Shown piece after piece: positions 1 through 63,948 of a stretch of DNA of 64,000 nucleotides (the stretch's first letter is position 1; every line of letters begins with the position of its first letter). The notes under the pieces are model-generated. The model ran no database searches. It was not told the DNA's origin and was given only the letters and a program-made list of their open reading frames with translations. The DNA is taken from positions 7,362 through 71,361 of IMG/VR virus record IMGVR_UViG_3300049016_000031. The stretch is one strand, 5' to 3'. Origin of the DNA: a virus. Made by a program: the position numbers and the translations under genes.

Positions 1-425
1 GCGTTCTTCGCAATTTTTACCCCGGTCCTCCGGTTTAGGGTCGACTTCAAGTTAACCGAAACGTCCCTCCGGTCTGTGGATAATATACAAAGTTCAGCAA
101 GCATGGAATCATAAACTGCTGGTGTGAATACATCGACTCCGTAGTTATTAAGAAATAGTAGGTCGAATGCGGCAAGGTTGTGACCTATTATTAATTTTCG
201 AGTACCGATAAATTTCTTTAGGGCAGGGGACATCTTCCCGCGATTGTGAATTACGACCCCGGTTTTAGATTTCAGACCGTAGAGTGAGGTAACAGCAATC
301 TTATCCCTGAAGGGGCTAAGACCACTGGTTTCGAGATCAAGGACTATCTCATCGTCACCCTGAAGCGCGCCTAAATTATCCTCACCAAGGAGCCGAATAT
401 GTATTGATTTCTTTTTTCTTGACAT
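1..425 (-). CDS. DEDD-type 3'-5' exonuclease domain protein, N-terminal part. The ORF runs off the window start and may be the proofreading N-terminus of a family-A DNA polymerase.
   Basis: Minus-strand translation from ATG 425-423 gives MSRKKKSIHIRLLGEDNLGALQGDDEIVLDLETSGL...LIIGHNLAAFDLLFLNNYG. Exo I (DxE in VLDLETSG) and Exo II (HNxxFD) motifs are present. There is no stop before position 1. The ATG overlaps the TGA of the upstream gene (ATGA). It is absent from the ORF track because no stop lies in the window. Confidence 0.55.
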   Translation of the reverse strand, partial: MSRKKKSIHIRLLGEDNLGALQGDDEIVLDLETSGLSPFRDKIAVTSLYGLKSKTGVVIHNRGKMSPALKKFIGTRKLIIGHNLAAFDLLFLNNYGVDVFTPAVYDSMLAELCILSTDRRDVSVNLKSTLNRRTGVKIAKN

Positions 426-1186
426 CACGCCACCTCCGCAATCCACGTATCATCCTTCTTAAACCAGCATGTGTGTGTGATTCCAGAAGGTGCCGGTTTC
501 CAGCACATCTCTACAAGCTCCCTTCGCCATTCAGAGCACGCCCTGAAAAAGCCGTACTGGATGGCGTATGACATCCATTGGTGCTCTATTGGTACCATTG
601 GAGCTGTTGAGTCGTAAACATGCGCCGACCCCTGATGGATGGTTACATTCCCAAGACTGAGACCTAACTCAGTGGCAACGACTTGGGCAAGACCGCCGAA
701 CATTACCAGGTCATAAGGCAGACCAAGGACTAAGTCCTGAGAGCGCATTGAGACGATGGTAATGAGGAGACCCTGGCGGATAAGGAACTGGATAGAGGTC
801 GTACATGGCTGACGCCACATTTCTACCGGGGACCGATTTCCTATTACAAGGATCGCTTCCCGGGTATCCCTATCCCTAACCAACAGGTTGAGAACAGACT
901 CCATCTGGTTAATTATAATGGGTCCATACATGAGATCACGGTGATAGAGGGATAAGTCAGCTGAGGGCGCCGCGTACTTGATGACGTTGGGATTGTACAC
1001 CCCGGCGACCATCATCATAAGTTCGGCCCAAGCTAGCTGAAGATTAAATTTGGGTCGGTAGAAGACATACCGGGGGTCGTAAGAGAACTCAGTTCCAAGA
1101 ATTTCTCTTGTCCCAAAACCCCTCGGAGACACCGGCTCCCCTAACGTTGTAACACGATTAACAAAATCACAATACGTCGGCAACAT
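425..1186 (-). CDS. Thymidylate synthase (ThyA/PF00303) family enzyme. Predicted cytosine-specific dCMP hydroxymethylase or dCMP methylase rather than canonical dTMP synthase.
   Basis: Aligns to the ThyA core: PC(T) nucleophile Cys, QF, MRSQD (Arg166/Ser167/Asp169 in E. coli numbering), LGLPYD and GSAHVY (His207/Tyr209). The specificity Asn177 of ThyA (GLPFN) is Asp here (GLPYD), as in T4 gp42 dCMP hydroxymethylase. The folate-side motifs (TTK, ELLWF) have diverged. Confidence 0.7.
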   Translation of the reverse strand: MLPTYCDFVNRVTTLGEPVSPRGFGTREILGTEFSYDPRYVFYRPKFNLQLAWAELMMMVAGVYNPNVIKYAAPSADLSLYHRDLMYGPIIINQMESVLNLLVRDRDTREAILVIGNRSPVEMWRQPCTTSIQFLIRQGLLITIVSMRSQDLVLGLPYDLVMFGGLAQVVATELGLSLGNVTIHQGSAHVYDSTAPMVPIEHQWMSYAIQYGFFRACSEWRRELVEMCWKPAPSGITHTCWFKKDDTWIAEVA

Positions 1187-1188
1187 AA

Positions 1189-1620
1189 TTAATACTCCCT
1201 TTCCATAAACATGCTCATAATTCCAGGACCACCTTTAAGCCAAGATAGCAACCTCTCCCGGGTCGCCTGCTCCATAGCCTCACGCACCGACCCGTCATAC
1301 CCCGGGTAGTCGAAATCGAACTTAGGCATTCCAATACCTGCAGCAACTTCATACTCCGCTACCGACCCGGGGGAGTTATGCCAACCCGGTATTAACAAGA
1401 TGGCGTCGCAGCGTTTTAGAAGTTCAATGTCACCTTCAAGCCAAACCGTATCGGGGGCAGCGCCGGTAAAAAACACTGTATTTGCATGCGGACATAATGC
1501 AGCACCCCCATTATTCCACACCAGAAGGGACCACTTCATGGCTTCCATAATGTTTTGTTGAACCTCGAACATATTGCCGGTCTTTGACCTGAACGGTCCA
1601 GCGATATAGACGACTTTCAT
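1189..1620 (-). CDS. DUF4406 / nucleoside 2-deoxyribosyltransferase-like protein (Rossmann fold shared with DNPH1/Rcl and MilB)
   Basis: Starts MKVVYIAGPFRS and has a C-terminal CDAILLIPGWHNSPGSVAEYEVAAGIGMP block typical of the DUF4406 / N-deoxyribosyltransferase-like family. Its stop lies 3 nt from the start of the ThyA-like gene. Confidence 0.55.
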   Translation of the reverse strand: MKVVYIAGPFRSKTGNMFEVQQNIMEAMKWSLLVWNNGGAALCPHANTVFFTGAAPDTVWLEGDIELLKRCDAILLIPGWHNSPGSVAEYEVAAGIGMPKFDFDYPGYDGSVREAMEQATRERLLSWLKGGPGIMSMFMEREY

Positions 1621-1805
1621 AACATTTCCCTCAACTTCTCCATTTCATCAATAAATTGTTGCGCCAATAAGATAAGGCTGTTGATACATTCTCTAGCCTC
1701 CTCTAAATTTGCAATATGATGATCCTCAGTGAAATCGTAAATTACTCCACCACCTAGGGTCTCACATTCACCTGTAATTTTATCTTTTATCTGTTCTAAA
1801 GTCAA
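1617..1805 (-). CDS. small hypothetical protein (62 aa)
   Basis: ORF with 4-nt overlaps to both neighbours (operon-style coupling). No recognisable motif. Confidence 0.35.
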   Translation of the reverse strand: MTLEQIKDKITGECETLGGGVIYDFTEDHHIANLEEARECINSLILLAQQFIDEMEKLREML

Positions 1806-3910
1806 CGTTTAATTCCCCAACTCACTGACGATCTACCCCCGGACATTTCTATTCCAACAATTCGTAGATCATCTGAAATGCTATAACTACGGCGCCTGAA
1901 TTCCTCAGGAAACCAAGCACCAAACTCCCGGGTCGGATGACCCATATTCTTTGAAAATTCATTGAACGACATGTACGCTTCCCTAAGCGTCACCGACTCG
2001 TTCTTAGCTTGCCGCATTTCTTCCTTTATGAACAAATCCACGATCTCAGAGAAATCTCGGTAGCGAGCAACCGCTTGCATCGACCCCTCGGGAACTGCCC
2101 ACGCTCCCTTATTTATAAATTTCTTGACCCTCGCGTTGCCCTCAAGCGACCAGTTGAGCACGCCGGAAATCTCCCTCATAATCTTAGACCTAAGCATCAC
2201 ATCCTTATGCTTTGGCATATTCTTAAACTCAATCATCACAATCCTCGCCCACACCCCTTCAGCCTCATCAATTGTTGGAAGTGTATTTGAAGACCACATC
2301 AACTTTCCGTCGAACTCTATGTCAAAAGGCCGACCGTACGGGTGACGACCTGTTATGGGGTCCCCGCTAACCAATGCCTTGAACACCCCGGTTCGGAACC
2401 TTTGGGTCGAAAGCTCCGTGCATACAGCGAGATACGCGTCTGAAAGGGTCGCAATCTGGTACTGTGAGATGTTTTGGGATGAAATTGTAACCGCCCGAGG
2501 ACCGAACATCTTAAAGATCGTACTCAGAAAAGTAGATTTACCAGTACGTTGCTGGCCGTAGAGCCATGTCATTCGCTCGAAGAAATTTCCGGGTTGGAGG
2601 CAGTACCCGACCCACTCCTGGAGAAATTTAGCAGCGTCAGGAACAGCTTCCTCAAGAAATCGCAACCAGTTATCCGCCTTCGCCTTCGGGTCATATTCAA
2701 CAGGCATCACTCTCTTTATGTGGTCGTCTATTTCAGCGGGCCGGAACTCCTTAGTCTCTAAATTCAACACACCATTAGTGAAGCCTACAAGATTGGCGTC
2801 GGGTTTGGAGAATCCCCGGGTCGCAAGTGTGCCTTTGACCATCCTTGCAATCCCCTCCGCGTTCTTTGGCAGAGCCGGGAGACGCTTCTCTATCCCATTT
2901 TTAAGTAGGACCAACTCGTCGAGGATGTTAAAAATTCCGGAAGCAAGTGATGACAGCTCGCGAGGGTGCCAAAGTCCGTCGAAGAATTCCATCAACTGTC
3001 CCTCTTCCCAAGCCCAGCTACATTCCCCATCGACAAAGTAAGTCACAACATCCTGAATAATCGTAGCCTGCTCCCCAATGACTTCTTCCCGATACTTAAC
3101 CTCACCATCCTTGACATTGTACCTCATCAATTCAAGGAGCAATTTCTGCTTCCGACCCAGGCATTCGGAGAATTCCTTGAACGTAACCGCATCGCCGTTG
3201 ATGTGCCTCTCGTACGTCGACTTTACGACTTTAACACGATTGGAAGTCTCCTCATCCTTCATAGCGGAGCATACCAAACGGATGACCTTCTCAATCCGAA
3301 CAGGGGACCAGTCACACCTCGACGCAATCGTTGAAAACCCCAGGACAACGTTGTTGCGATTACCTGAAAACCAATACGGTATAAGGAGGCACGCCAGGAG
3401 GTGCTCCTCAATTTGCTGCGGGTCGTATCGCACGTGGTTTCCCCCGACCCATTCACAAGGAACATGCGGAACCGTTTTAATGTTCATCGACCCTGGAATG
3501 CGGAGCAAGCGGGTTATGTCTACTGCTTGCTTGTCTCCGTCTAGGCATACCTGCGCTAGACGTATAAGTCTCATAGCCTCGGGAGCCGGTATCTCCTCCT
3601 TAAGGTACATGTAGACATGAAAGCCATGCCCGGAATTTATTATAGCACTTGGCTTAAGGGCGGTCTTAGTCTCCTTAGAAATTTCAGAAATGCCGTCTAG
3701 GTCCGAAAATATTGCAGTGGCAGAGAGCACCTTGGTCGCCTCGCGTGGGCAGGCTCCGAAGTACCAATTTGATCTCGGACTCAGTTTTGGAAGTTTAGGA
3801 TTAGAACATTTAGTTTCAAATGTGCCTGTATTTTCTCCGCCGACCGACCTAATAAGTATGTTTCTTGACGAAACTGAGAACAGTTCTTTAAGAAAATCAA
3901 CTGAATTCAT
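1802..3910 (-). CDS. DNA primase-polymerase (prim-pol) / D5_N / SF3 (P4-type) helicase
   Basis: 702 aa. N-terminal prim-pol signature ...SDLDG...SGHGFHVYMYL. Central D5_N-like region. Walker A GQQRTGKSTFLS and downstream Walker B/sensor motifs typical of phage/plasmid primase-helicases. Confidence 0.8.
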   Translation of the reverse strand: MNSVDFLKELFSVSSRNILIRSVGGENTGTFETKCSNPKLPKLSPRSNWYFGACPREATKVLSATAIFSDLDGISEISKETKTALKPSAIINSGHGFHVYMYLKEEIPAPEAMRLIRLAQVCLDGDKQAVDITRLLRIPGSMNIKTVPHVPCEWVGGNHVRYDPQQIEEHLLACLLIPYWFSGNRNNVVLGFSTIASRCDWSPVRIEKVIRLVCSAMKDEETSNRVKVVKSTYERHINGDAVTFKEFSECLGRKQKLLLELMRYNVKDGEVKYREEVIGEQATIIQDVVTYFVDGECSWAWEEGQLMEFFDGLWHPRELSSLASGIFNILDELVLLKNGIEKRLPALPKNAEGIARMVKGTLATRGFSKPDANLVGFTNGVLNLETKEFRPAEIDDHIKRVMPVEYDPKAKADNWLRFLEEAVPDAAKFLQEWVGYCLQPGNFFERMTWLYGQQRTGKSTFLSTIFKMFGPRAVTISSQNISQYQIATLSDAYLAVCTELSTQRFRTGVFKALVSGDPITGRHPYGRPFDIEFDGKLMWSSNTLPTIDEAEGVWARIVMIEFKNMPKHKDVMLRSKIMREISGVLNWSLEGNARVKKFINKGAWAVPEGSMQAVARYRDFSEIVDLFIKEEMRQAKNESVTLREAYMSFNEFSKNMGHPTREFGAWFPEEFRRRSYSISDDLRIVGIEMSGGRSSVSWGIKR

Positions 3911-4002: not shown

Positions 4003-4725
4003 CTAGAAGGAGGACATTTCAGCGGCTTGCTGAAGAACCGAGTCCTTAACTTTGATCTGCTTGATGACCGGGGTGTACCACGTATTCTTTCCGGCAACGT
4101 TCTTGTTAGAAGTTACCTCAATGGCGAAGTTCCCCATCTTCAATTTCTGGATAAGCGTGTTCAGTCCGGTTGCAGGTCGCAGGCCAGCGCCACGGACGTC
4201 CCAGGCAGCTATCGACCCGTGAGTTTCTGAGTACACGCCGTATGAGTAGTAGAAGGTGCATTGCGGTTTGATGTTGTTTCCCTTCTTATCCTTTGTCCAC
4301 TGATTGAATGGGCAACGGGCACAATTGCCGCCAGGATCTCCCTCGCCGTGAATGGAATCACCACTCTGGCAAAGAATCCCGTCGTCGTCCGTGGAATAGA
4401 TTCGCCCCTTTCCAAACACAAGGGGCACCAAGATCACACTATCTACTGGGTCGGACCCTGGGAAGATGAACTGGCCCGCTTGAGCAGCACCATCTAAAAC
4501 CTCGGGTGTGCCAGGTTGCCCGATCTTAAGGCGGGGCATCTGGAGGTCTGAGCGGTCAAATTCTGGAGTTGAACTATATCGGCGTTGACTTGCTGGTACG
4601 CCGTCCTCAGTTGTTGATAATTCACCAGAAGATTGTCGAACCAAAGCTGTGCTCCCAGCAGAGTCGGCAAGATTCGCCTTCCGGGCAGCCTTGGGAGCGG
4701 GTTTTTGTGGTACTTGTTTTCTCAT
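4003..4725 (-). CDS. hypothetical Cys-cluster protein (240 aa)
   Basis: Long ORF coupled (ATGA-type overlap) to the downstream kinase gene. Contains C...CARCPFNQW...C, which is consistent with zinc binding. No family recognised. Confidence 0.45.
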   Translation of the reverse strand: MRKQVPQKPAPKAARKANLADSAGSTALVRQSSGELSTTEDGVPASQRRYSSTPEFDRSDLQMPRLKIGQPGTPEVLDGAAQAGQFIFPGSDPVDSVILVPLVFGKGRIYSTDDDGILCQSGDSIHGEGDPGGNCARCPFNQWTKDKKGNNIKPQCTFYYSYGVYSETHGSIAAWDVRGAGLRPATGLNTLIQKLKMGNFAIEVTSNKNVAGKNTWYTPVIKQIKVKDSVLQQAAEMSSF

Positions 4726-5669
4726 ATTAAATTTTTCCTTTGCAATTCTACTTTTAGACTTGAAATAGAGCTAGCATACTTTACCGACTGCGAACCCCAG
4801 CGGTAGCCGTAGGCGGGGTGCTCAATCCGCAAAGCATGCAGCTTAAGTTTCATACAAATGTGGGCGGCTACCGCTCCCACAGCAATTATTTGCTTATTCA
4901 GGAGGAATTCAGCAAAAAAATCTATGTTTGCTGTTACGTGGTCGGAGTTGGTCCATCCCCACCTCAGTGCGGAGTCACCGAACTCTCGACCAAATCGAGT
5001 CGTATAAGAACTAGTAAAGGGAAGCCAGTTATGCGACCCGTCAGGGAGGCTCCGCCGGTCGCCGATGACAATTACCGGGGCTGGGGTCGGACCGCAATAA
5101 TTCGGTGGGAGGAGTTCTGGAACCGTTTGATTCTTAAAAATCAATCTGTTAAAAGTTGTTTCAACAAGCGCTTTTAAGCTTGATTCAGTGTGGTTGTTAT
5201 TGAACACACGCCAGCCAAATTTAATACCGTACCCCTCATACTCAGCTCTCTCATCGAACGGCTCGACTGGGTGATCAGTTGCATCCCTGTGCGACCTAAG
5301 GGACTCAACGGATGGGCCGAGGAGCATTAAGCGCTCACCAGAAGATATGAGGGCGCGGTCGTAGTGCCACGCGGCAAGCCAGGGGTCATCCCAGAACACT
5401 CGTTTTGAAGAACGGGTCTCAGGCATAAGCTTAGGGTACACATACTCCGACGCCCAGGAACGGTCCCAAATTATCGCGTCGTTTGCCTGCGATGCATAAA
5501 TTTCAGACATCGGTTTGGTGTACACAAATGAGTGATGCGAGGCGTCAGGCATCCCCCAGTGAAACGCCTTTGCTTGAACGCCATTCGCAGCGCAGTGCTG
5601 CATCAAAGCATGAATAAACGTGGTTTTTCCCGCCTTTTCACAACCGTCAACTACCAGTAATTTTGACAT
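4722..5669 (-). CDS. P-loop nucleotide kinase (thymidylate-kinase-like) fused to a C-terminal uracil-DNA-glycosylase-like domain
   Basis: Probable start is MSKLLVVDGCEKAGKTTF (RBS AGGAACGAAGGA upstream); the longest ORF would start at 5723. The DRSWASEYVY block is TMPK-like. The C-terminal ~130 aa carry PVIVIGDRRSLPDGSHNWLPFTSS and IEHPAYGYRWG, resembling UDG motif A ([21 protein letters not shown]) and motif B (HPSPLS). Confidence 0.6.
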   Translation of the reverse strand: MSKLLVVDGCEKAGKTTFIHALMQHCAANGVQAKAFHWGMPDASHHSFVYTKPMSEIYASQANDAIIWDRSWASEYVYPKLMPETRSSKRVFWDDPWLAAWHYDRALISSGERLMLLGPSVESLRSHRDATDHPVEPFDERAEYEGYGIKFGWRVFNNNHTESSLKALVETTFNRLIFKNQTVPELLPPNYCGPTPAPVIVIGDRRSLPDGSHNWLPFTSSYTTRFGREFGDSALRWGWTNSDHVTANIDFFAEFLLNKQIIAVGAVAAHICMKLKLHALRIEHPAYGYRWGSQSVKYASSISSLKVELQRKNLI

Positions 5670-6033
5670 TCTTAGTCCTTCGTTCCTCAGTTCTAATTCG
5701 ATGACAATTTGCACAAACAACATCGCAACTCTTCATTTCATTTTTTACTCTATTCAAACTTCCAGTTGAAATCAACGCTCCAACATTAGCTGTTTTTATT
5801 TCTCCCGGTCGATGATCAAACTCCATGCAGCATATTGGATACATATTTTGACAATCCATACAAGGTTGATTTCGTACAGAATTAACGTAGTCTCGTAATT
5901 TTTGAATTCTTTTTGCGTGATAAACTTTATACTGCGCAAGAGCCTTTGGAGTACGCCTATACTCCTTCTTTTTTAGAGGATTATTTTTCCACCAATCTTG
6001 TTGAGCTTTTTTATGTCTCTCATCTCTAGCCAA
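5647..6033 (-). CDS. HNH / His-Me finger endonuclease (endonuclease VII-like zinc-binding nuclease)
   Basis: CMDCQ...CCMEFDHRPGE...N...CANCH, i.e. the CxxC-DH-N-CxxCH arrangement. Confidence 0.6.
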   Translation of the reverse strand: MARDERHKKAQQDWWKNNPLKKKEYRRTPKALAQYKVYHAKRIQKLRDYVNSVRNQPCMDCQNMYPICCMEFDHRPGEIKTANVGALISTGSLNRVKNEMKSCDVVCANCHRIRTEERRTKNVKITGS

Positions 6034-12210: not shown

Positions 12211-13161
12211 TTACTTCTTAAACCATTCTGGAATCAGCGCCTCGTCGTCACCGCTACAGTCATCGCAGATGATGTTGAACAAATCGAGACCTAATTCTTC
12301 CATCTCGTACTTAACAAAGTGGGTATAGGTGAAGGATGATGCCACGATCACTAAGCCGTTTGGATGATTGTCAGCCCACTTAACAATCTCTCTGGCGTTG
12401 TCCTCCATCAGCGACGTACCGGGCATCATCCCACCAAAATCAAAAATGACCAACTCCGTGGTTTCCTTAATTCCATAATCCCCACCCGTCCCGGCGTGCT
12501 TTGGGGTATGGATGTCAAGTACCGCAGGTGCCAGCAATTGGCTGAACCGTTCAGTATGGTCCTCAATCTCTTCCTCCGGCGTTTGATCCATGCAACCCAT
12601 CATGTCAACAATGATCGCCGTGACGATTCGCCTCGGCTTTACGCCGGGTGGTAGCGTTGAGATTGGTTTAGATTTTGGCGTTTTCAGCCGCTTCTGTTTG
12701 TTCTTACTTTGTTTCATTTTTCTCCTTATAAGGTACACAACTTCGTGTTCGTGTCCTGCATTTTCCATTACGAATTCAACATCGTACTTAAGTTCAAGTG
12801 GTCGTATATCAAGATCAAGATTTCGATGAATTCCAACATACACAATTTCAGCCCCTCTCCTGATTGCTAGTTCAACAATTTTATCCACGCCCATTACACG
12901 ATTTGGTCGACAAATAAGAACTAGCATACCAGGTAAGAATGGAAAGTGGTGAGCATCTATTACATATGGGTTGCATTCAGGATTTTCCCTCATATACAAA
13001 TCAACACCACAAGCCTTGAGCCCGCACTCATTGAAAACCCGTACTACCCTCCCCACCCCACAACCAACATCAATCACAACTCGGTCATTGCAAATAGACT
13101 TTACCCAATCGATGAACTTGGGAAGAGGGTCAAAAAATACCTGATTTGGTAATACATCCAT
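12211..13161 (-). CDS. class I SAM-dependent methyltransferase fused to a C-terminal domain of unknown function
   Basis: Motif I VIDVGCGVGR near the N-terminus. A Lys-rich linker (KQSKNKQKRLKTPKSKP) is followed by a roughly 150-aa acidic domain. Confidence 0.6.
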   Translation of the reverse strand: MDVLPNQVFFDPLPKFIDWVKSICNDRVVIDVGCGVGRVVRVFNECGLKACGVDLYMRENPECNPYVIDAHHFPFLPGMLVLICRPNRVMGVDKIVELAIRRGAEIVYVGIHRNLDLDIRPLELKYDVEFVMENAGHEHEVVYLIRRKMKQSKNKQKRLKTPKSKPISTLPPGVKPRRIVTAIIVDMMGCMDQTPEEEIEDHTERFSQLLAPAVLDIHTPKHAGTGGDYGIKETTELVIFDFGGMMPGTSLMEDNAREIVKWADNHPNGLVIVASSFTYTHFVKYEMEELGLDLFNIICDDCSGDDEALIPEWFKK

Positions 13162-14587: not shown

Positions 14588-15871
14588 TCATCCCCCCATT
14601 AAAGCCTTGCGGCTCTCGACTGAAATTTTTGCAAAAATTGTCGCCTCTAGGGCTTCCTGGTGAGTGAACCCATTCTCAAGCATCAGGGCACCGTTCACGG
14701 TAGCCCGGGGGCTGATTACGACCTTCAGGCCACGGTTTGAGGCTCGGAGCCGGAATTGTTGGACGGACTCGACCCACTGGGGAAAATTGGGAACCAAGCG
14801 TCGCTCGAGAACCTCGTCGTACGGCCAAGCGAGCTGGACGAAACGGTCGAGGAAGGCGGCGTCCATCTTTGAGCGTCCCACGTACTCGGTACCTCCGCCG
14901 TAACCCCACGTGTTTGCCGCGGCGACGCAGCGTAAATTTTTGTGCCGAGGGGTTGGCTTTGAGCAACCGGGAAAATCAGCGACGTCACCGGCCAGAGCTG
15001 CATTGAACGCAAGGACGGCGGAGGGAAGTGAGGCGTCGACTTCATCGAAGAGGTACAAGCCGCCGTTTGTATATGCCTCCCGGAAGGCAGTGGAGACGAT
15101 GCGACCCTGGGCGTCAATGAAGCCGGACAGTTTGTACTCTGAGTCTATTGCGCCGTTAAAGTAGAAGTCTAGGCCGAGGGCATCGGCGACCTGGCGGGCG
15201 GCTGTGGTCTTACCAGAACCGGCCGGGCCTGCGACCCAGACATTGATTCCGCAGGACACCATCCGGAGGAGATGGTCGAAGCACTCGTGGACCGACCCGG
15301 ATATGACCTTGGTCTTCTTATTAATGATTACGTGGTGCTCTACGACCTGGACCTTGAGGAGTTCTTCCTTGACCGCCTCGCGGGCTAGTTCAATGAATTC
15401 TTTTCCATTAAACTCATACTGGTCCGCTACAAGTTCGCGAACTGGTTTGTCGAGCTTTTCAAGAATATCAAGAACCATCGCCTTAGTGTCCACGACTTGG
15501 AGTTTGGACTTGTCCACGTGCTCGTCTGCCGACGTCCAAGCGGACTTGAGACGCCTATCAGCTTCTTTTAATTCTGTAGCAGCAATTTGTGTTCGCACAA
15601 TTTCATACCGGAGGTCCATATCATCCTTAAATTTAGCACCGTTTAATGTATCAATTCCAAAGCGCTCAGCGCGAGACCTTAGGGAAGAACCCTTCAAAAC
15701 GCGCACGAGGCGCCACGCTTCTACAAAAGCTGGTGGAAATTTGTGCGATAAGCACTCAGTATGGATGAAGTCCCCGTCAAGGTTACCAGACCTAGAGATG
15801 GTAGAGACGTTCGGTGAGAAGCGATTGCCACACGCCGGACATATTGTTGCAAACTTAGCTATGACACTCAT
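14588..15871 (-). CDS. AAA_5 (MoxR/CbbQ/McrB-like) ATPase with N-terminal zinc ribbon
   Basis: CPACGNRF...HTEC zinc ribbon at the N-terminus. VWVAGPAGSGKTT Walker A and LYLFDEVD Walker B, typical of AAA_5. Confidence 0.7.
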   Translation of the reverse strand: MSVIAKFATICPACGNRFSPNVSTISRSGNLDGDFIHTECLSHKFPPAFVEAWRLVRVLKGSSLRSRAERFGIDTLNGAKFKDDMDLRYEIVRTQIAATELKEADRRLKSAWTSADEHVDKSKLQVVDTKAMVLDILEKLDKPVRELVADQYEFNGKEFIELAREAVKEELLKVQVVEHHVIINKKTKVISGSVHECFDHLLRMVSCGINVWVAGPAGSGKTTAARQVADALGLDFYFNGAIDSEYKLSGFIDAQGRIVSTAFREAYTNGGLYLFDEVDASLPSAVLAFNAALAGDVADFPGCSKPTPRHKNLRCVAAANTWGYGGGTEYVGRSKMDAAFLDRFVQLAWPYDEVLERRLVPNFPQWVESVQQFRLRASNRGLKVVISPRATVNGALMLENGFTHQEALEATIFAKISVESRKALMGG

Positions 15872-16422: not shown

Positions 16423-17277
16423 CTAATTTTTTACCGTTTCATCATCACTTTGGAAGTTGGACGGCATCGGGTCTTTGTCGTATTGGATCCAAAAATCGTC
16501 CTCGATGTCACCTGCAATTATTGCTTTACCTCTAGGCGCCTTACTCAAGTTATTTTTCAAATCCGCGAGTTCTGATTCAGATAACGGCCGAAAGGCTACA
16601 GGCCGGGGTGGCGGCGGGCCGAACTGCTCGAGGATGGCACAGCCCACGGCTGTAATCTCGAGGATGTTATGAATTGATTTTCTACCCGGATCTTGGGCCT
16701 CTTGAAGAAGACGCTGAAGGATGTCTAGCCATTCTGTCATCGAATGGTAGTGAACATCCAGGGTACCCCATTTGTGATCCTGGTACCGGCGCTCCTCGTT
16801 GATTGCCAAGAGGGCGGTCCGCCGAGCATCGGTAAGCCGATCGACAATTGAGGAAAGAGGTTCGACCCAGGAGGGGAACTCCTTTGAGAGGTACCGAACC
16901 CCCTTGCCGTGCCGCTTTGCGTAAGCAATCTCCGACCTGGTTGAATCGCCGATGTAGCCAGAGACGTCGAGGACGAATATCTCATCCGAGGCGCGGATTT
17001 TCTCCTTATGGATACGGTCTAATTTTTGCTTATTTCTCTCCGTTGGGTTATCATACTTATACGTTGAGACTGAATACACGAGCGCCGTCTCATCCAGCGT
17101 TAAGCGCTGATTCCAGTACTGGTAGGCGCTAGTGAAGCGGGTCGACCCACAGAGGGTGATGCGCTTAGGATGCCGCCTCATCCATGGGAGTTTGCATTTC
17201 GGTGCCACTCCAACCCACTGGAGTACGAGGCTAGTTGTAAGAGCGAGAATTCCTAAAATTAGTAGGAAGTAGATCAT
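16423..17277 (-). CDS. membrane-anchored protein: N-terminal TM helix + Rossmann-like deoxyribosyltransferase/SLOG-type domain + C-terminal helical domain
   Basis: N-terminal TM segment MIYFLLILGILALTTSLVLQW. Then ITLCGSTRF ... SDEIFVLDVSGYIGDSTRSEIAYAKRHGKGV, matching the YxAGP...D.GTA.E.G.A...GKPV pattern of this fold. Confidence 0.45.
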   Translation of the reverse strand: MIYFLLILGILALTTSLVLQWVGVAPKCKLPWMRRHPKRITLCGSTRFTSAYQYWNQRLTLDETALVYSVSTYKYDNPTERNKQKLDRIHKEKIRASDEIFVLDVSGYIGDSTRSEIAYAKRHGKGVRYLSKEFPSWVEPLSSIVDRLTDARRTALLAINEERRYQDHKWGTLDVHYHSMTEWLDILQRLLQEAQDPGRKSIHNILEITAVGCAILEQFGPPPPRPVAFRPLSESELADLKNNLSKAPRGKAIIAGDIEDDFWIQYDKDPMPSNFQSDDETVKN

Positions 17278-18251
17278 TTGGTCTCCTTTTTGCGGCCCAG
17301 GCCGGAGGCCGAGAGTCGCTTTTGAAATACTGATTGCGTATCGACGAGGACGGGGTCGTCTTGGAAGAATCCGTCAGCCTGTAACTTGGAACGCATCTCC
17401 TCATCTGTCATCTCATGGCCGGATTGCTGGTCCACAAATGTACCGTCCTCCCGGAGGCTGACGCCTACCACATCGGCTTCAGCCGGGGGCTGCGGAGTAG
17501 GCGGTTTCCGACGCTTGGAGAAGAAGATAGAGGAAATGCCGTCTTGGTGGGAGAAGGCGCAGGGCTTGAAGACGAGGTCGGAGAGGGCGGGGTCCGGGGA
17601 CCACATTCCGATGCAGAGGTATGAGTCCATACGGCTCGGGCCATACGCCTGTGCAGTGCCGCCCTGATCCTGGTGCATAAAATTGAGGCACTCTTCGACC
17701 TCGCGCTGGAAAACGTGGGTCCGACCGTTGAGGAGGCGGAGTGCGATGTAGACGTCGAGGATCTTAGAAACTTGATACTGGACCGGGGTCTGTGATTCTC
17801 CAAACTCGTTTTTGGTAATACCGGCGCGACGACCCCCAGGGGGACCGAAGAAAGCGTCGGAGAGGCCGAAATTATGGAGGAACCATGGAACACGACCGTC
17901 GGGGAGCTGAAAGAGGATACCGGGTTGAAAGCTGCGCCTTACAAGTTTTCGACCGTGGCGCATTAGGGGCCGACCCGACCCACGAAGGTTCTTGAAGGAG
18001 CCTGTGCAATCCATGAGGACGGTGAATTCCTCAGCGCGGAGCTCACCAAGCTTGGGGTCCAGGAACTTGCTCACGGACAGGATGGGTTTAGAAAACGGCT
18101 TCGACCCCTTCTGGTACGGATTCTTAAGGGGCTCGTTGTCCTGAGTGTCGAGAATTTCATCTATTGTTTTTTGACTCTTCATACTGTCTAACCCTTTCTT
18201 CATACCACTCCCGAATTGAGATGTCTGGACCGGCGTACGAGGCGTACTCAT
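17274..18251 (-). CDS. hypothetical protein (325 aa)
   Basis: Long ORF coupled by a 4-nt overlap. The internal opposite-strand ORFs look like GC-driven artefacts. Confidence 0.5.
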   Translation of the reverse strand: MSTPRTPVQTSQFGSGMKKGLDSMKSQKTIDEILDTQDNEPLKNPYQKGSKPFSKPILSVSKFLDPKLGELRAEEFTVLMDCTGSFKNLRGSGRPLMRHGRKLVRRSFQPGILFQLPDGRVPWFLHNFGLSDAFFGPPGGRRAGITKNEFGESQTPVQYQVSKILDVYIALRLLNGRTHVFQREVEECLNFMHQDQGGTAQAYGPSRMDSYLCIGMWSPDPALSDLVFKPCAFSHQDGISSIFFSKRRKPPTPQPPAEADVVGVSLREDGTFVDQQSGHEMTDEEMRSKLQADGFFQDDPVLVDTQSVFQKRLSASGLGRKKETK

Positions 18252-26022: not shown

Positions 26023-26841
26023 ATGTTATCACTCCGCGAATTCATCCTTGAATACGACCACCTGAACACTCGGCGCCTCCTGGGTCGGCCCTCCCCGTGG
26101 TCCCAGGACATAGTCCTCCAAAGTTACCGCTTCGGTAACTTCCGCCGGGAGCTCGACCGCACGAATCGCCTCCTCACCACCTTCTTCGGGTCGTCTCGGC
26201 TCACCGGTACACTGGTCGGCAACTTGGTGTCACACCGGATGGTCTCGCAGCCCTCCTTCACCTCCGCCTACGGCATCTTTGGGTCGTACTCGGATTTTGA
26301 ACGGGTGTATAACGACGCCATGAAAAGCGGAATACCCACCCGGCCGTCATCGTTCATGTCTTGCCGGTCTGCAGACCGGTTTCTTGACGCAATTCAAGAC
26401 TCCTGGGACAACTCTCTCACACTCACAAACAAGATTCAGCAGAAGCCGACCCTCGAATCCGTGTACCGCCTCTTTGCCCCCGTCCTCGGCAAATTCACCT
26501 CGTGGCAGCTCGCCCTGGACTTCCTTATGCTCCACCTGGTCGGCAATCCAGGGGAGTGGGCGCACATCGGCCCAGGGTCGGGAACGGCCCTCCTCGCTCT
26601 TGGGCTAAAGCCTGACCTTCGGTCGATCCTTGACCTCCTCCTTATTATCAATGAGTCACCAAAGCAACTCGACCTCCGGGTCGACGAGCTGGAGGGGGCA
26701 CTCTGCGAATACTCGAAGTACATTCGCCTTTGCAACACTCAGTTCCCGGGCAAGTTCCGAAACTTCACCCCCTCCTCGGAACACTTATTCCCTGTCCCCA
26801 CGGACTCGGTCTTGAAGGAGTTTTATGCTTCGCATATTTAA
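26023..26841 (+). CDS. hypothetical protein (272 aa)
   Basis: Clean ORF. No motif recognised. Confidence 0.5.
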   Translation: MLSLREFILEYDHLNTRRLLGRPSPWSQDIVLQSYRFGNFRRELDRTNRLLTTFFGSSRLTGTLVGNLVSHRMVSQPSFTSAYGIFGSYSDFERVYNDAMKSGIPTRPSSFMSCRSADRFLDAIQDSWDNSLTLTNKIQQKPTLESVYRLFAPVLGKFTSWQLALDFLMLHLVGNPGEWAHIGPGSGTALLALGLKPDLRSILDLLLIINESPKQLDLRVDELEGALCEYSKYIRLCNTQFPGKFRNFTPSSEHLFPVPTDSVLKEFYASHI

Positions 26842-27762: not shown

Positions 27763-27865
27763 CGCTTCTAAAACAATCACGCTCCCTGGCGCTCTCGTCC
27801 TTTGCTGCCTAATTATTTGCGTAGAGTGGATTGCCGGGGAGTGGATTAGGGGACTCTTTAAGTGA
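27740..27865 (+). CDS. small membrane protein (about 41 aa)
   Basis: Sequence MEFNRIIDASKTITLPGALVLCCLIICVEWIAGEWIRGLFK. Overlaps both neighbours. Confidence 0.3.
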   Translation: MEFNRIIDASKTITLPGALVLCCLIICVEWIAGEWIRGLFK

Positions 27866-28995
27866 AAATAATTGATTGCCAACTCCTAGCCGGTTCCGGA
27901 CTTGTGGCTGCTAAATCTCTTGATTTTCAAATACAGGGTCGGATGTCCAATGGCTTCGGCGACGACGTTGTCCAGGCCAACAAGCAACTGTTAGGGGACA
28001 TTCCAATTTGGGGTGCCAATTTCTGGAAACCTCTTAACGGTGACGTCGTCGCGGGCTGTCCGCCCTGCTCAGGTTGGTCTCAGCTCAACTTCCGGGGTCG
28101 AGGTGCGCATGCTGCAGCTCATAAGTATACCTGGGACCTGATCCGGTATGCCGCTTCCTGCAATAACGGAAAGGGTCCCAAAGTAGTTGTCTGGGAATGC
28201 GTTCAGGCCGCGTACCGCGAGGGCTCCGCCCTTATGCAAGAGTATTTCGATTACCTTTGCTCCGCGACAGGGTCGAAGTACACTCTCACTAATGTCCTGA
28301 TGTCCGGTGCCTCAGTAGGCTCGGCATCTGAACGCAAGCGCTACTTCTGGGTCGCCTCAAAGGTCCCATTCGGTGTGTCGGTCCCGGACCTCGTTCGACC
28401 AGTCACAGTCGGAGATCGCCTCTACACCGACCCGGTGTTCACCCCCGACGTTCTGGGTACCTGGCCGCATTCTACCATCCTCCACTCCGACCAGCCCTCA
28501 AAGATTCTTCAAATGGTAGTAGACACGCATAGAGCGGCGGGTTGGCACGAGGGTTGGACCCTCCGGGACGCTGCGTTCCACCTCCTCAAATCGGATAAAC
28601 TTAGTGGAGCCCAGAAGCGACGGTACTTCGACGACCATGGTTGCTGGATCGGCTTCCCAGGCCCAAAGATTCTGGATTCCTCAAAACCCTGCCCTGTAAT
28701 TACTGGAGGTGCGGCTGCGGACTTTCTTCACCCCACTGAGCATCGCTTTTTGACTGTTTATGAATTCGGGCGGCTCATGGGGTATCCAAAGGATTGGGTG
28801 TGGCCCGGGACCTCGGTCCGAAAAACGGTCGAGCTTATTGGCAAGGGAGTGCCGGTGGAAAGTTGGCACTGGGTTCTTAACAATATTAAACAGTCCCTAG
28901 AGGGAAATCCAGGCGCCCTGCGTGGGTCGGTCGTCGATGTGACGTACGCCTGGCAGGGTTTGCGTAAAATAAAAATATCAGAGCAGATAAAATAA
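27862..28995 (+). CDS. C5 pyrimidine methyltransferase-family protein (DNA cytosine-5 MTase-like)
   Basis: GTG start. Motif I-like LLAGSGL, motif IV GCPPCSGWSQ (PC catalytic Cys), motif VI WECVQ (ENV-like), motif VIII SERKRYFWVAS, motif X LIGKGVPV. Confidence 0.65.
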   Translation: MKIIDCQLLAGSGLVAAKSLDFQIQGRMSNGFGDDVVQANKQLLGDIPIWGANFWKPLNGDVVAGCPPCSGWSQLNFRGRGAHAAAHKYTWDLIRYAASCNNGKGPKVVVWECVQAAYREGSALMQEYFDYLCSATGSKYTLTNVLMSGASVGSASERKRYFWVASKVPFGVSVPDLVRPVTVGDRLYTDPVFTPDVLGTWPHSTILHSDQPSKILQMVVDTHRAAGWHEGWTLRDAAFHLLKSDKLSGAQKRRYFDDHGCWIGFPGPKILDSSKPCPVITGGAAADFLHPTEHRFLTVYEFGRLMGYPKDWVWPGTSVRKTVELIGKGVPVESWHWVLNNIKQSLEGNPGALRGSVVDVTYAWQGLRKIKISEQIK

Positions 28996-30683: not shown

Positions 30684-31403
30684 TTGGACATCGGTTGTGG
30701 CAAAGAGGTTCCCCTCGCTAAGTTGCTGTACGTTAATAAGATGTCCCCTGCCTCGTACCTCGGCATTGACGCTAACAAGCTGGAGGTTCCGGAAATGCTG
30801 ACTACGACCCCAAAGCCGTGGCTTTCGCTTATGTCAGCTGACGTTACCAAAATAAACGCAAAACAATTTTATGAGAATGTCTTAAAGCCAAACGTAATCG
30901 TTTCATTTGAAATGCTGGAGCATGTCACTCCGCGAAAAGCCACACAGACCCTCCGGTTCATTCACTCGGTTCTCGATCCGGCCGGAAGGGCGTACATTTC
31001 CACTCCGTGTTTCAACGGGTCGGCTGCGGGTAACCACATCAACGAGATGACGTACCACGCCCTCGGTGCACTTATTGAGGATTTGGGTTTCGCAATCGTG
31101 GAACACTATGGGACGTTTGCCTCCATCCGAGATTATCACACCCAGTTAGCCTTAGATAGTCATGAGGATGAAAATCCGCAGTGTATGACGGCGTATCAGG
31201 CCTTTTTGAGGCTTCGTGATTATTACGACACCAACGTCCTCGCGACGATTTTCGCACCCCTTTACCCCCAATTTTCCAGGAACTGCCTCTGGGTCCTCTC
31301 GAACCAAATTCCGGTCGGGTACCAGCGGAGGTTCCCTTCCCTCAAGAAGGTCCCAGGACCCTGGTCGTCATCTGAGCAGTGGCGGCAATTAGGAGGAAAA
31401 TAA
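30684..31403 (+). CDS. class I SAM-dependent methyltransferase
   Basis: TTG start. Motif I LDIGCGKE at the N-terminus, plus acidic motif II/III-like blocks. Confidence 0.55.
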   Translation: MDIGCGKEVPLAKLLYVNKMSPASYLGIDANKLEVPEMLTTTPKPWLSLMSADVTKINAKQFYENVLKPNVIVSFEMLEHVTPRKATQTLRFIHSVLDPAGRAYISTPCFNGSAAGNHINEMTYHALGALIEDLGFAIVEHYGTFASIRDYHTQLALDSHEDENPQCMTAYQAFLRLRDYYDTNVLATIFAPLYPQFSRNCLWVLSNQIPVGYQRRFPSLKKVPGPWSSSEQWRQLGGK

Positions 31404-61165: not shown

Positions 61166-62428
61166 TTGACAAAATCAAAGTCTGACTCATTCGAGTTTAA
61201 TGAATTAGGAAACAAGGCAACTGCCATCTGTTTAACTAGGTCGCCACACACCTTGGAGCAACTAATTAAATTCTGTCAGGTGGACACCAAGGTATGGAGG
61301 GTAGGGAAGTGGAAGGCAATCATACGGGACATGGGGTCGATGCCACGTTCGACCCGGGAAAGTCAGAATGACAAATGGCTCCGACCCTCGAGTAAGCCAA
61401 TCATTACCCCGCTTTACCAGATCAACGCGGAATTTGAGCGAATATCTCCTATTGCTATTAAGTTTCCAGAGGTCCGACCCGTAGAGGTCTCTGTACCAAA
61501 GGCTCCTGCTCTAATCAAAAAGAAGTTGAATAGCGACCTTAGGACAGCACTCATAATACCGGACATGCAGGTAGGATTTCGGCGACACCACAGAACTGGT
61601 GTGCTTACCCCGTTCCACGACCGCCGATGCATGGATATAGTGTGGGCGGTAAACCGGGAGCTTCGCCCGGATAGGGTCGTGCAGCTCGGGGACAACTTCG
61701 ACTTTCCAGAATTTGGTCGCTTTCGAAAACCTCCAGAATTTTACTTCACAGCGCAGCCAGCAATTGCAGAACTCGGAGTCTGGGAAGCAATGCTTGTTAG
61801 AGACAACCCCAAAGCTGAACATGACTATATTGAAGGAAATCACGACGCCCGGTTTGTTAATTCCATTATTGAATACAACACCGCCGCTTACGACCTCCGG
61901 CCCGCAGACGACCTTGATGGTCTTTCACTCTTTTCAGTTCCGCGACTTCTAGGACTTTCAAAGCTAGGAATAAATTACTGGGGTCCCTACCCCGGTGGGG
62001 AAGTTTGGATAAATGACAACCTTATGATGTGCCATGGTCAGGTCGTCAGGTCGGAATCAGGTGCTACGACTAAGACTGTGGTCAAGGATGCGAGGGCGTC
62101 GGAGGGGCAAGGACACATTCATAGGGCTGAGATGGCTTCCAAGACGGTATGGAGTCGAAAGGGTCCTAAGATATACCAGAGCTGGTCTTACGGCACGCTG
62201 GCCAGTCTCGACCCTGGGGCAGTTCCAGGATACAAGCAGAGACAGAACTGGCAGCAAGCTTTTGGTTGGATTGAATATGAAGAAAAAAATGGATTTTTTC
62301 ATTCGCAAGCTCCAATAATTTATGGCAATGTTTCATACTTTAATGGTCGTAAGTGGTATGCTAGAAAAGAAGAACAAATAATAGAAGAAATAGAAGAAAT
62401 TATTGAAGGAAAAGTAAAAATAAGATGA
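61166..62428 (+). CDS. calcineurin-like metallophosphoesterase
   Basis: TTG start. IIPDMQVG, QLGDNFD (GDxxD), EGNHDA (GNHD), CHGQ (GH) and GHIH motifs. Confidence 0.65.
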   Translation: MTKSKSDSFEFNELGNKATAICLTRSPHTLEQLIKFCQVDTKVWRVGKWKAIIRDMGSMPRSTRESQNDKWLRPSSKPIITPLYQINAEFERISPIAIKFPEVRPVEVSVPKAPALIKKKLNSDLRTALIIPDMQVGFRRHHRTGVLTPFHDRRCMDIVWAVNRELRPDRVVQLGDNFDFPEFGRFRKPPEFYFTAQPAIAELGVWEAMLVRDNPKAEHDYIEGNHDARFVNSIIEYNTAAYDLRPADDLDGLSLFSVPRLLGLSKLGINYWGPYPGGEVWINDNLMMCHGQVVRSESGATTKTVVKDARASEGQGHIHRAEMASKTVWSRKGPKIYQSWSYGTLASLDPGAVPGYKQRQNWQQAFGWIEYEEKNGFFHSQAPIIYGNVSYFNGRKWYARKEEQIIEEIEEIIEGKVKIR

Positions 62429-62880
62429 AATTAATCTCTTTAACTCAAGGTTTGTTTGCTAAAATTAGTGACGAAGATTTTGAAATAATAAGTAAATACA
62501 AATGGAAAGCTCACAAAAGTAGAGGAATAACATACGCGTACAGCGGAGATTCTAGAATTTTTGGATCTATGCATAATTTTATTCTTAGTGGCGCTGCAGA
62601 GGTAGACCACAAAAATAGAGACGGATTAGATAATCAAAGAGAAAATATACGACCTTGTACTCATAAACAAAATATGTACAATCAAGGACCTAAAAAATCG
62701 AATTCTACGGGATTTAAGGGAGTATCACAAGATTCTAAAGGAAAATTTATTTCAATGATTAGAACAGATTCTGGAAGATTATATTTAGGTTATTACAACA
62801 CTGCAATAGAAGCAGCTGTAGCTTATGATAAGGCAGCAAAACAGCATCATGGGGATTTTGCGCATCTAAATTTTCCTTAA
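62425..62880 (+). CDS. HNH endonuclease with AP2 DNA-binding domain (homing endonuclease)
   Basis: N-terminal HNH (EVDHKNRDGLDNQRENIRPCTHKQN). C-terminal AP2 (GVSQDSKGKFISMIRTDSGRLYLGYYNTAIEAAVAYDKAAKQHHGDFAHLNF). Confidence 0.65.
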   Translation: MKLISLTQGLFAKISDEDFEIISKYKWKAHKSRGITYAYSGDSRIFGSMHNFILSGAAEVDHKNRDGLDNQRENIRPCTHKQNMYNQGPKKSNSTGFKGVSQDSKGKFISMIRTDSGRLYLGYYNTAIEAAVAYDKAAKQHHGDFAHLNFP

Positions 62881-63170: not shown

Positions 63171-63514
63171 AGTTTTGCTATTATGACTGGGCAGTCTAAT
63201 TTATGCTCTCCGTCAACTCCATTACACAAGATACAGATTAACGTGGCTCCATGACGTGTGGACTTAATTGATAGCACAGACTGCACCAGAGAATAAAACA
63301 ACTCCCGGCTGGGCGAGCACTCTGCGGCCCTCCAGCTTTCCATTGCGCAAGCTATTTCTACAGCTTCATCAATTTTACGGAGGGGTTGGCACTTGTGAAC
63401 TTCTGAAAAGTGCGCCCACAAGCGCACAACAATAGGCCCAATCGGGTCGCGACCCAAGAGTATAAATTTTGGTTCATTTTCTTTCGCTTCAGCGTGGTAA
63501 TCTTTTCTTTTCAT
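63152..63514 (-). CDS. hypothetical Cys-containing protein (120 aa)
   Basis: ORF with a 4-nt overlap to the dCMP deaminase gene. Confidence 0.4.
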   Translation of the reverse strand: MKRKDYHAEAKENEPKFILLGRDPIGPIVVRLWAHFSEVHKCQPLRKIDEAVEIACAMESWRAAECSPSRELFYSLVQSVLSIKSTRHGATLICILCNGVDGEHKLDCPVIIAKLCLEEF

Positions 63515-63948
63515 CTTAATCCTATTAACTCGACATTTTTTTGCATCATTAGTTCTCTAGCAATTCGAAGTTCCTCTTCCCGACCATACGGAGATAAGTA
63601 GTAAACCCGGACAATCCCGTCCCGAATAAGCTGCTTAGTGCAAAGCAGGCAGGGGGTGTGGGTCGCAAGCATGTAGCACCCTGAAATATTGCCCATAAGT
63701 TTTTTAGCCCAAGCTAATGCGTTATCTTCAGCATGAATTGTGCGAACGCAATGCCCTTCAAGTAATAAATGACCTGCTTCGTCGCAATGCTCTAAGCCCG
63801 GTAGCGACCCATTGTACCCTTGAGAAATTTGCTGATAGTCTGGAGTAAATATCACCGCACCTGCGTGTAATCTGTCACACGTAGACATTTCGGCCCACGC
63901 CAGGGCATTTTTTTCTAGGGCTCTTAATTTGAGATCGCATCTCATCAT
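63511..63948 (-). CDS. dCMP deaminase (cytidine/deoxycytidylate deaminase fold)
   Basis: HAEDNA (zinc-binding H-x-E) and PCLLC (PCxxC) motifs spaced as in ComEB/T4 Cd. Confidence 0.75.
   Translation of the reverse strand: MMRCDLKLRALEKNALAWAEMSTCDRLHAGAVIFTPDYQQISQGYNGSLPGLEHCDEAGHLLLEGHCVRTIHAEDNALAWAKKLMGNISGCYMLATHTPCLLCTKQLIRDGIVRVYYLSPYGREEELRIARELMMQKNVELIGLR

Follow-up and report, generated by a model that had tools for sequence, protein, structure and literature searches.

A 64,000-nucleotide stretch of an uncultured tailed phage (positions 7,362 to 71,361 of IMG/VR record IMGVR_UViG_3300049016_000031; hereafter the window) encodes, in a minus-strand replication operon at its left end, an enzyme of the thymidylate synthase (TS) superfamily, here called the ThyA-like protein, for which deoxycytidine monophosphate (dCMP) is well supported as the predicted substrate by the active-site residues. 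A hydroxymethyl product is tentatively favoured over a methyl one, and the DNA of the phage probably contains modified cytosine. The prediction of cytosine chemistry from an aspartate at position 177 of such enzymes follows routinely from published rules, and the ThyA-like protein is a new and divergent enzyme of a known kind, resembling MilA.

Membership of the superfamily is evident from both profile and fold. The protein matches Pfam Thymidylat_synt (PF00303; E=1e-16, 61.3 bits against a cutoff of 24.3) and the PHROG thymidylate synthase family (8e-26), and its best sequence match in the PDB is the CMP 5-hydroxymethylase MilA (2.9e-14), narrowly before M. tuberculosis ThyA. When an AlphaFold model built with 26 homologues (predicted local distance difference test, pLDDT, 93.3) was compared with the PDB by Foldseek, the top seven matches were all MilA chains (template modelling score, TM, 0.71-0.75; 26-27% identity), followed by ordinary TS; there were 396 PDB matches at E<=0.001, and among the 50 listed all were MilA or TS apart from a designed hydrolase (4f2v). 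Close relatives of the protein were not found in cultured phages, the best protein identity being 35% or less. The source database's call for this gene (P0001, 197 aa) begins at an internal Met, and the 253-aa open reading frame (ORF) is the better call because homologues align from its residue 1-5.

Residues were compared in an alignment of E. coli ThyA, T4-type Td, T4 gp42, MilA and further homologues taken from a large protein collection (27) and from viral loci (44); positions below follow E. coli ThyA numbering unless a window residue is named. The motifs from which the initial annotation had recognised a ThyA catalytic core all align, P127-C128 on Cys146, M147-R148-S149-Q150-D151 on Arg166, Ser167 and Asp169, and G186-S-A-H189-V-Y191 on His207 and Tyr209, and the remainder of the catalytic and ligand-binding set is likewise in register (Arg21 as R22, Glu58 as E55, Tyr94 as Y87 and Arg126' as R109). 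The aspartate it had placed at the specificity position also stands, G155-L-P-Y-D159 aligning with G173-L-P-F-N177 of E. coli ThyA in the presence of T4 gp42 and MilA. In addition to Asn177, replaced by Asp159, His147 is replaced by Thr129 and Gln165 by Met147, the methionine being common to the window protein, T4 gp42 and MilA. Asp177 and Thr147, both marks of a T4 gp42-type enzyme, are invariant in all 70 aligned relatives, an invariance that is not circular because position 177 is no part of the pattern by which the viral loci were found (MRS[WQ]D[LMA]xxGL). The residues of a canonical dTMP synthase at positions 177, 147, 143 and 80 (Asn, His, Leu and Trp) are replaced by D159, T129, R125 and, where the alignment is uncertain, an alanine.

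Published work gives rules for reading such residues. Change of Asn177 to Asp shifts TS-family enzymes from dUMP to dCMP (work on T4 gp42 D179N and L. casei N229D, summarised in PMC13326640, PMC8670742 and PMC5175136), and positions 177 and 147 best separate the TS homologues of cytosine-modified contigs from those of unmodified ones (PMC8670742). M6 gp58, a predicted dUMP hydroxymethyltransferase from a phage with bases derived from 5-hydroxymethyldeoxyuridine (5-hmdU), was included as a control and has Asn177, Asn147 and Asp143; its retention of Asn177 indicates that position 177 discriminates within phage hydroxymethylases. The cytosine chemistry that had been proposed in place of dTMP synthesis is thereby upheld as a prediction, resting on Asp177, Thr147, Met165, MilA as nearest structure and a separate ThyX (below). 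Deoxy- rather than ribonucleotide is expected since the window protein has Ser167 and Arg126 (S149 and R109), whereas the preference of MilA for ribo-CMP depends on Ala176 and Lys133' where deoxy-specific enzymes carry Ser and Arg (PMC5175136); a ribo-specific CMP hydroxymethylase of the MilA/BcmA type was rejected for this reason. A 5-hydroxy-dCMP synthase of the RB69 gp48 type was also rejected, because such enzymes carry Asn at the Asp169 position (PMC13326640) and the window protein retains the aspartate (D151).

From the observed fold, family, active-site residues and gene contexts, a scheme can be drawn in which substrate, product and every downstream step are predicted. Cys128 would attack C6 of dCMP, with Asp159 and Thr129 protonating and orienting the N3/N4 edge of the cytosine, and a one-carbon unit from 5,10-methylene-tetrahydrofolate would be transferred to C5, where the exocyclic methylene would most likely be trapped by water to give 5-hydroxymethyl-dCMP. 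A Tmk-like kinase fused to a domain resembling uracil-DNA glycosylase (UDG), together with the host nucleoside diphosphate kinase, could then yield the modified triphosphate for incorporation by the family-A polymerase (PolA) encoded directly downstream, while dTMP would be supplied by the phage's own pair of dCMP deaminase and ThyX. After replication, a late gene cluster may elaborate the base on the DNA, and the DUF4406 protein encoded next to the ThyA-like protein would most likely hydrolyse some nucleoside monophosphate of the pool or transfer its deoxyribose-5-phosphate. The scheme of a dCMP C5-hydroxymethylase, kinase, incorporation by PolA and supply of dTMP by deaminase and ThyX is the best explanation of the data as a whole, and is considered reasonably probable.

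Several observations weigh against this scheme. The acidic residue at position 143 expected of a T4 gp42-type hydroxymethylase is missing, Leu143 of E. coli ThyA being replaced by Arg125; Arg127' is replaced by Glu110; and Trp80 is not kept, in a region where the alignment is poor. Residue-based calls of the product are fallible, because N177D with an acidic residue at 143 failed to predict the product of RB69 gp48 (PMC13326640). No dCTPase was identified in the window, and a C5 cytosine DNA-methyltransferase (C5-MTase)-like enzyme of the late cluster would be left without a substrate if every cytosine bears a C5 substituent. Finally, related ThyA genes commonly adjoin a dCMP deaminase gene, and one locus (L046, IMGVR_UViG_3300031998_000142) encodes a 448-aa fusion of an Asp177/Thr147 ThyA (residues 5-340) to a dCMP deaminase (324-422), which could mean that modified dCMP is deaminated.

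The residue at position 143 bears most directly on the possibility of an XP12-type dCMP methylase, which would form 5-methyl-dCMP by hydride transfer from tetrahydrofolate and leave 5-methylcytosine in virion DNA. Asp177 is enough by itself to make a dCMP methylase of L. casei TS (Liu and Santi 1992, cited in PMC13326640), and bulky hydrophobic residues at 143 correlate with a methyl product, Asp or Glu with a hydroxymethyl one (PMC13326640). The family mostly has Asp or Glu at this position; the closest clade is variable (R/G/L/T/D), its nearest member to the window protein (P0002) having Leu and the window protein Arg. A non-acidic residue, along with the presence of the C5-MTase-like gene, would suit a methylase, but arginine is not the bulky hydrophobic side chain thought to exclude water, acidic residues prevail among the members, the nearest structures are hydroxymethylases, with which Met165 is shared, and the window encodes a homologue of a protein from a hydroxymethyl-pyrimidine pathway. 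A methylase is accordingly regarded as unlikely, and hydroxymethylation of dCMP remains the preferred reading.

That homologue belongs to the late cluster, in which genes for an HMUDK_hel protein, the C5-MTase-like protein and a Methyltransf_23-type methyltransferase are located just upstream of the terminase genes. The stand-alone HMUDK_hel protein is related to M6 gp55 (BLASTP 1e-6), which belongs to the thymidine-hypermodification cluster of M6, and its similarity to 5-hmdU DNA kinases is confined to their helical domain, with neither a domain match nor a Walker A motif to indicate a P-loop kinase domain. It has no relatives in IMG/VR and three homologues only in the large protein collection, and may serve to read or process hydroxymethyl-pyrimidine in DNA. 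The C5-MTase-like gene, mentioned in passing by the initial annotation, was located with its PC, ECV and S-adenosylmethionine (SAM)-binding motifs. Homologues of the Methyltransf_23 protein occur at 15 other ThyA loci (E 1e-60 to 1e-17), mostly 1-3.4 kb upstream of ThyA, and conservation is much stronger among them (E to 1e-60) than among the ThyA proteins encoded alongside (26-30% identical); the target of the window protein could be the hydroxymethyl group or a nucleotide. The three-gene set is kept in the sister phage with an Endonuclease_7 gene interposed, making it a candidate post-replicative modification module, the target of which may be 5-hydroxymethylcytosine (5hmC) because the genome's only one-carbon enzyme is of the cytosine type. 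An extension of the scheme would be a cytosine hypermodification not previously described, in which 5-hydroxymethyl-dCMP, once incorporated, would be acted on in the DNA by the gp55-like protein, the C5-MTase-like protein (which could activate C6/C5 of 5hmC) and the Methyltransf_23 protein, with the kinase-UDG fusion and the MilB/DNPH1-like DUF4406 protein handling modified nucleotides. We put this forward tentatively, as a possibility of appreciable but minor probability. Two further genes of related type were seen, one for a 316-aa protein with a weak N-terminal Methyltransf_23 match (7.8e-5), a C-terminal half of unknown function and no homologues in the fetched loci, and one for a 207-aa Methyltransf_23 protein on contig L007, upstream of ThyX.

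Recurrent partners of the ThyA-like gene were counted by iterative profile search at 48 Asp177-ThyA loci, the window included. A dCMP deaminase gene was found at 28 of the 48 loci, usually directly downstream, followed by a Tmk-like kinase (23), a MazG-like pyrophosphohydrolase (18), a Methyltransf_23-type methyltransferase (17) and a C5-MTase-like gene (14); Asp177 TS homologues with a deaminase and MazG are already known markers of cytosine-modified phage contigs. The Tmk-like gene of the window is a P-loop kinase fused to a UDG-superfamily domain, and is a candidate modified-dNMP kinase. The fusion cited in the initial annotation holds for its kinase part, the N-terminal half giving weak profile matches to thymidylate kinases and PPK2, while the UDG part is supported through homologues, the C-terminal domain of which matches PF03167 in six of seven cases (7e-6 to 0.011). 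The window copy itself scores no UDG match, yet is 53% identical to a homologue that does, and the catalytic-motif position reads GDRRS in the window and GE.RN in its relatives. The fusion might act as a dNMP kinase or, on DNA, as a base-flipping enzyme. Its gene and an adjoining 240-aa ORF, for which there was no Pfam match, are conserved upstream of the primase-helicase across the clade.

The DUF4406 protein encoded immediately upstream of the ThyA-like protein matches Pfam DUF4406 (PF14359; 5.5e-7), DUF7768 (1.3e-5) and the PHROG family 'nucleoside 2-deoxyribosyltransferase' (NDT; 1.1e-19), and its structure model (pLDDT 90) is most similar in Foldseek to a cyanobacterial NDT (1.2e-4), MilB (2e-4), T. 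brucei NDT and BcmB, with DNPH1 lower (1e-2), at TM of about 0.6. The NDT fold that had been suggested for it is thus borne out by the PHROG match and by the top folds of the model. By sequence, MilB was not significant (phmmer E 0.9), and the DUF4406 family profile reached E of about 0.07 at best in the PDB, against DUF1937 and NDT structures. Among 186 homologues, many of them 50-60% identical across a 100-residue core, the invariant or near-invariant residues are Y5, G8, P9, F10, R11, C43-P-H45-x-N47-T48, D57, W60, G63-D64, D72, S83-x-G85 and E89. In alignments that are individually weak but mutually consistent, the Tyr-Asp-Glu triad of NDT and MilB falls on Y5, D64 and E89. S83-P-G85 aligns on the residues with which MilB holds the 5'-phosphate, Ser97/Gly99 (PMC4081090), Ser-x-Gly occupying the site at which the transferases bind the 5'-OH through Asp/Asn, and Phe10-Arg11 match MilB Phe22-Arg23, a pair that stacks on the base and touches the hydroxymethyl and phosphate groups (PMC4081090); the cytosine-reading Glu62 of MilB aligns on Thr48. 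From sequence and model together, the DUF4406 protein is credibly predicted to be a (deoxy)nucleoside 5'-monophosphate N-glycosidase or phosphodeoxyribosyltransferase. The phage NDT-family enzyme DmtZ, shown in a 2026 paper to carry out both hydrolysis and transfer for dAMP/2-aminoadenine (PMC12884076), is a precedent for a role of this kind in pathways of non-canonical nucleotides. Elsewhere in the window, a 284-aa protein that has a hydrophobic helix at its N-terminus shows by eye the strings 'ITLCGSTRF' (DNPH1-like) and 'ERRYQDHKWG' (MazG/DUF550-like), and gave no Pfam, PHROG or PDB match that would mark it as a second DNPH1-like and MazG-like enzyme.

The initial annotation had gone further in regarding the DUF4406 and ThyA-like proteins as a dedicated pair for synthesis and pool sanitising. 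They could form a MilA/MilB-type pair converting 5-hydroxymethyl-dCMP to 5-hydroxymethylcytosine and deoxyribose-5-phosphate, or DUF4406 could be a DNPH1-like sanitiser of 5-hydroxymethyl-dUMP. The best structural matches of the two proteins are MilA and NDT/MilB, the genes abut, and they stay side by side in the two closest phages, L129 (ThyA 61% identical) and L006 (53%); in the P0010 phage a PF05014 NDT gene is likewise encoded within a few genes of ThyA, Phe10-Arg11 are as in MilB, and an insertion of about 17 residues is common to the three ThyA-linked DUF4406 copies and lacking in the other aligned homologues. However, in a survey of 80 other viral loci with DUF4406 homologues, covering 8 kb to either side, no ThyA-family gene, dCMP deaminase or ThyX was present (the ThyA and deaminase profiles being good, that for ThyX a weak one of two sequences), and no recurrent neighbour emerged from the heterogeneous surroundings, so that a systematic DUF4406-ThyA association was rejected. 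Conversely, DUF4406 was present at 3 of the 48 Asp177-ThyA loci (the window, L006 and L129) and missing from the relatives P0005, P0007 and P0014; on both counts the pairing is confined to this lineage. P-F-R was rejected as a hydroxymethyl-specific marker, as DUF4406 proteins conserve it throughout the family, irrespective of gene context, and the linked copies diverge at otherwise invariant residues, with Val for Asp64 in L129 and neither Phe10 nor Arg11 in L006. With Thr48 in place of Glu62 and no significant MilB sequence match added to these results, the dedicated pair was not sustained: either form of it is rather unlikely, and a specialised role of DUF4406 with ThyA is given equally little credence. 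We regard DUF4406 as a generic enzyme of phage nucleotide pools, carried beside ThyA in this lineage. Cultured phages with DUF4406 homologues are mostly Salmonella, Klebsiella and Proteus phages with genomes of about 59 kb, and we know of no modified pyrimidines reported in them. A literature search yielded no paper tying DUF4406, DNPH1 or NDT enzymes to phage hydroxymethyl-pyrimidine pathways.

The dCMP deaminase cited in the initial annotation is present at the right end of the window, and an identical deaminase sequence occurs on a 6.1-kb contig (L007) that is 100% identical to window positions 62312-64000 over 1,689 bp and runs past the window end. On this contig ThyX (PF02511) lies directly upstream of the deaminase with a 4-nt overlap, placing it just beyond position 64000. 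The occurrence of deaminase and ThyX in the same genome indicates that the phage has its own route from dCMP through dUMP to dTMP. The sister phage (P0004) similarly has ThyX then deaminase, plus an Asp177-ThyA, and ThyX is also found in the P0014 phage. The deaminase could alternatively act on 5-hydroxymethyl-dCMP as an intermediate, giving 5-hydroxymethyl-dUMP for a thymidine-type hypermodification through the HMUDK_hel-like protein, as the frequency of deaminase genes at Asp177-ThyA loci, the L046 fusion and the M6 gp55-like protein of the window might suggest. The deaminase here is nevertheless coupled to ThyX, which makes dTMP, the P-loop kinase acting on 5-hmdU in DNA (5-HMUDK) and aGPT-Pplase2 were not found in the window, M6 gp58 keeps Asn177, and Asp177 is associated experimentally with cytosine-modified contigs (PMC8670742), leaving deamination of the modified nucleotide quite improbable. 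An ordinary thymidylate synthase converting dUMP to dTMP, as the Pfam, PHROG and source annotations would have it, is very improbable given that Asn177, His147, Leu143, Gln165 and Trp80 are all replaced, ThyX is already present and the nearest structures are CMP hydroxymethylases.

The window has a G+C content of 46.8% and no nucleotide-level relatives by megablast among 50,697 phage records. Its features are collected in Table 1.

Table 1. Genes of the window discussed in the text, with counterparts at other viral loci (identified by locus number)
Feature	Position	Strand	Evidence
Family-A DNA polymerase gene, 5' part (3'-5' exonuclease domain), cut at window edge	1..425	-	weak RNase_H_2/RNase_T
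ThyA-superfamily enzyme, 253 aa, MilA-like clade	425..1186	-	Pfam, PHROG, fold
DUF4406 protein, 143 aa	1189..1620	-	Pfam, PHROG, fold
62-aa ORF, function unknown, between primase-helicase and DUF4406	1617..1805	-	
D5-like primase-helicase (archaeo-eukaryotic primase (AEP) N-terminus, D5_N, DUF5906), first gene of the operon	1802..3910	-	Pfam
Conserved 240-aa protein, function unknown, always downstream of kinase-UDG in the clade	4003..4725	-	phmmer L006, L008, L009
Tmk-like P-loop kinase fused to UDG-superfamily domain	4722..5723	-	PHROG Tmk 1e-4
316-aa protein	12211-13161	-	
AAA/MoxR-CobS-like ATPase	14588-15871	-	PHROG 'porphyrin biosynthesis' 1.8e-49
284-aa protein	16423-17277	-	
325-aa unknown protein	17274-18251	-	
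Stand-alone HMUDK_hel protein, 272 aa, M6 gp55-like	26023..26841	+	PF18723 9.4e-21
C5-MTase-like protein	27862..28995	+	PF00145 5.3e-13
Methyltransf_23-type SAM methyltransferase	30684..31403	+	PF13489 8e-10
dCMP deaminase	63511..63948	-	HAE...PCxxC motif, PF00383
Methyltransf_23 counterparts	L034 6688-7542, L040 2306-3160, L005 5987-6883, L002 934-1758		
ThyX	L007 3659-4471		PF02511
ThyA-dCMP deaminase fusion	L046 7959-9305		
Thr147/Asp177 protein of Pseudoxanthomonas phage PW916 (UIS73818.1)	L002 3280-4098		
Thr147/Asp177 protein	L005 7983-8783		

The minus-strand operon runs in the order D5-like primase-helicase, 62-aa ORF, DUF4406, ThyA-like gene and family-A DNA polymerase, and both the DUF4406 and the ThyA-like frames lie on the minus strand where the initial annotation had placed them. 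The primase-helicase is upstream of ThyA in all relatives as well, a full PolA follows the ThyA gene in relatives, and the succession of primase-helicase, ThyA and PolA is conserved among them. The 62-aa ORF and DUF4406 overlap, stop on start, in an ATGA; 2 nt lie between the stop of DUF4406 and the start of ThyA (TAA-tt-ATG); and ThyA and PolA again overlap, stop on start, in a TGATG. Translational coupling of DUF4406 and ThyA is therefore real, with a spacing of 2 nt rather than the 3 given previously; as a mark of that pair it fails, since all junctions of the operon overlap or abut and coupling is a trait of the whole operon. The left flank beyond the window probably holds the rest of PolA and a probable MazG, by extrapolation from the sister phage L006. 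The ATPase of the MoxR-CobS type and the 325-aa protein encoded near it may be a CobS/CobT-like pair as in other phages, and these genes bear no relation to the ThyA finding.

Among characterised systems, T4 offers a close parallel, gp42 having in common with the window protein the ThyA fold, Cys nucleophile, Asp177, Thr147, Met165 and Ser167/Arg126, and the T4 nucleotide module (gp42, the dNMP kinase gp1, Cd and Td) likewise combining a kinase and a dCMP deaminase with a dTMP synthase of its own. The two proteins are, however, only about 23% identical (phmmer 3e-5, against 3e-14 for MilA), the window protein has Arg rather than Asp at 143, lacks Trp80 and has another C-terminus, and the window phage uses ThyX instead of Td, with no glucosyltransferase or gp56-type dCTPase found in the window. 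MilA and MilB of Streptomyces rimofaciens are the nearest ThyA-like structure and among the nearest DUF4406 folds, respectively, are encoded by adjacent genes, and MilB has the Phe-Arg pair and Ser-x-Gly...Glu in common with the DUF4406 protein; the ribose determinants of MilA are nonetheless Ser/Arg in the window protein, and DUF4406 differs from MilB in belonging to another Pfam family, lacking Glu62, and having neither family-wide ThyA linkage nor an antibiotic context. The MetaGPA contigs (PMC8670742) share residues 147 and 177 and the co-occurrence of dCMP deaminase and MazG/PRA-PH (PRA-PH being in the sister phage), but the carbamoyltransferase is not present in the window lineage, which adds the kinase-UDG fusion, DUF4406, HMUDK_hel and Methyltransf_23, none of which is in the main text of that paper. 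DmtZ of the Z-genome phages (PMC12884076) is comparable as a phage NDT-superfamily enzyme in a non-canonical pool context, with a Glu-nucleophile triad and a 5'-monophosphate substrate; its base system is adenine/2-aminoadenine, and the likeness is one of fold family, not of sequence comparison. The thymidine-hypermodification clusters of M6, ViI and PaMx11 are linked to the window by the gp55/HMUDK_hel homologue, whereas their P-loop 5-HMUDK, aGPT-Pplase2, pyridoxal phosphate (PLP) and radical-SAM enzymes were not found there, and M6 gp58 differs from the one-carbon enzyme of the window in having Asn177 rather than Asp177.

Some existing database entries are affected by the same residue comparison. 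Proteins of Pseudoxanthomonas phage PW916 (UIS73818.1; L002) and of locus L005 are labelled 'deoxyuridylate hydroxymethyltransferase' and 'pyrimidine hmase' and carry Thr147/Asp177; from these residues they are more likely dCMP enzymes, and the annotation is doubtful. More generally, the labels 'dUMP hydroxymethyltransferase' and 'thymidylate synthase' are probably wrong for Asp177/Thr147 enzymes.

Phage base modifications govern sensitivity to restriction, CRISPR and other defences, and have yielded useful enzymes. The accessory set of the window lineage (kinase-UDG, gp55-like, Methyltransf_23 and DUF4406) is unlike the characterised glucosyl, arabinosyl and carbamoyl cytosine pathways, and if the chemistry also differs, the lineage would add a new cytosine derivative and might supply a first function for DUF4406 and for HMUDK_hel-only proteins. 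The proposed hypermodification, if true, would parallel for cytosine what the hypermodification pathways do for thymidine, with a processing trio that is without a characterised counterpart.

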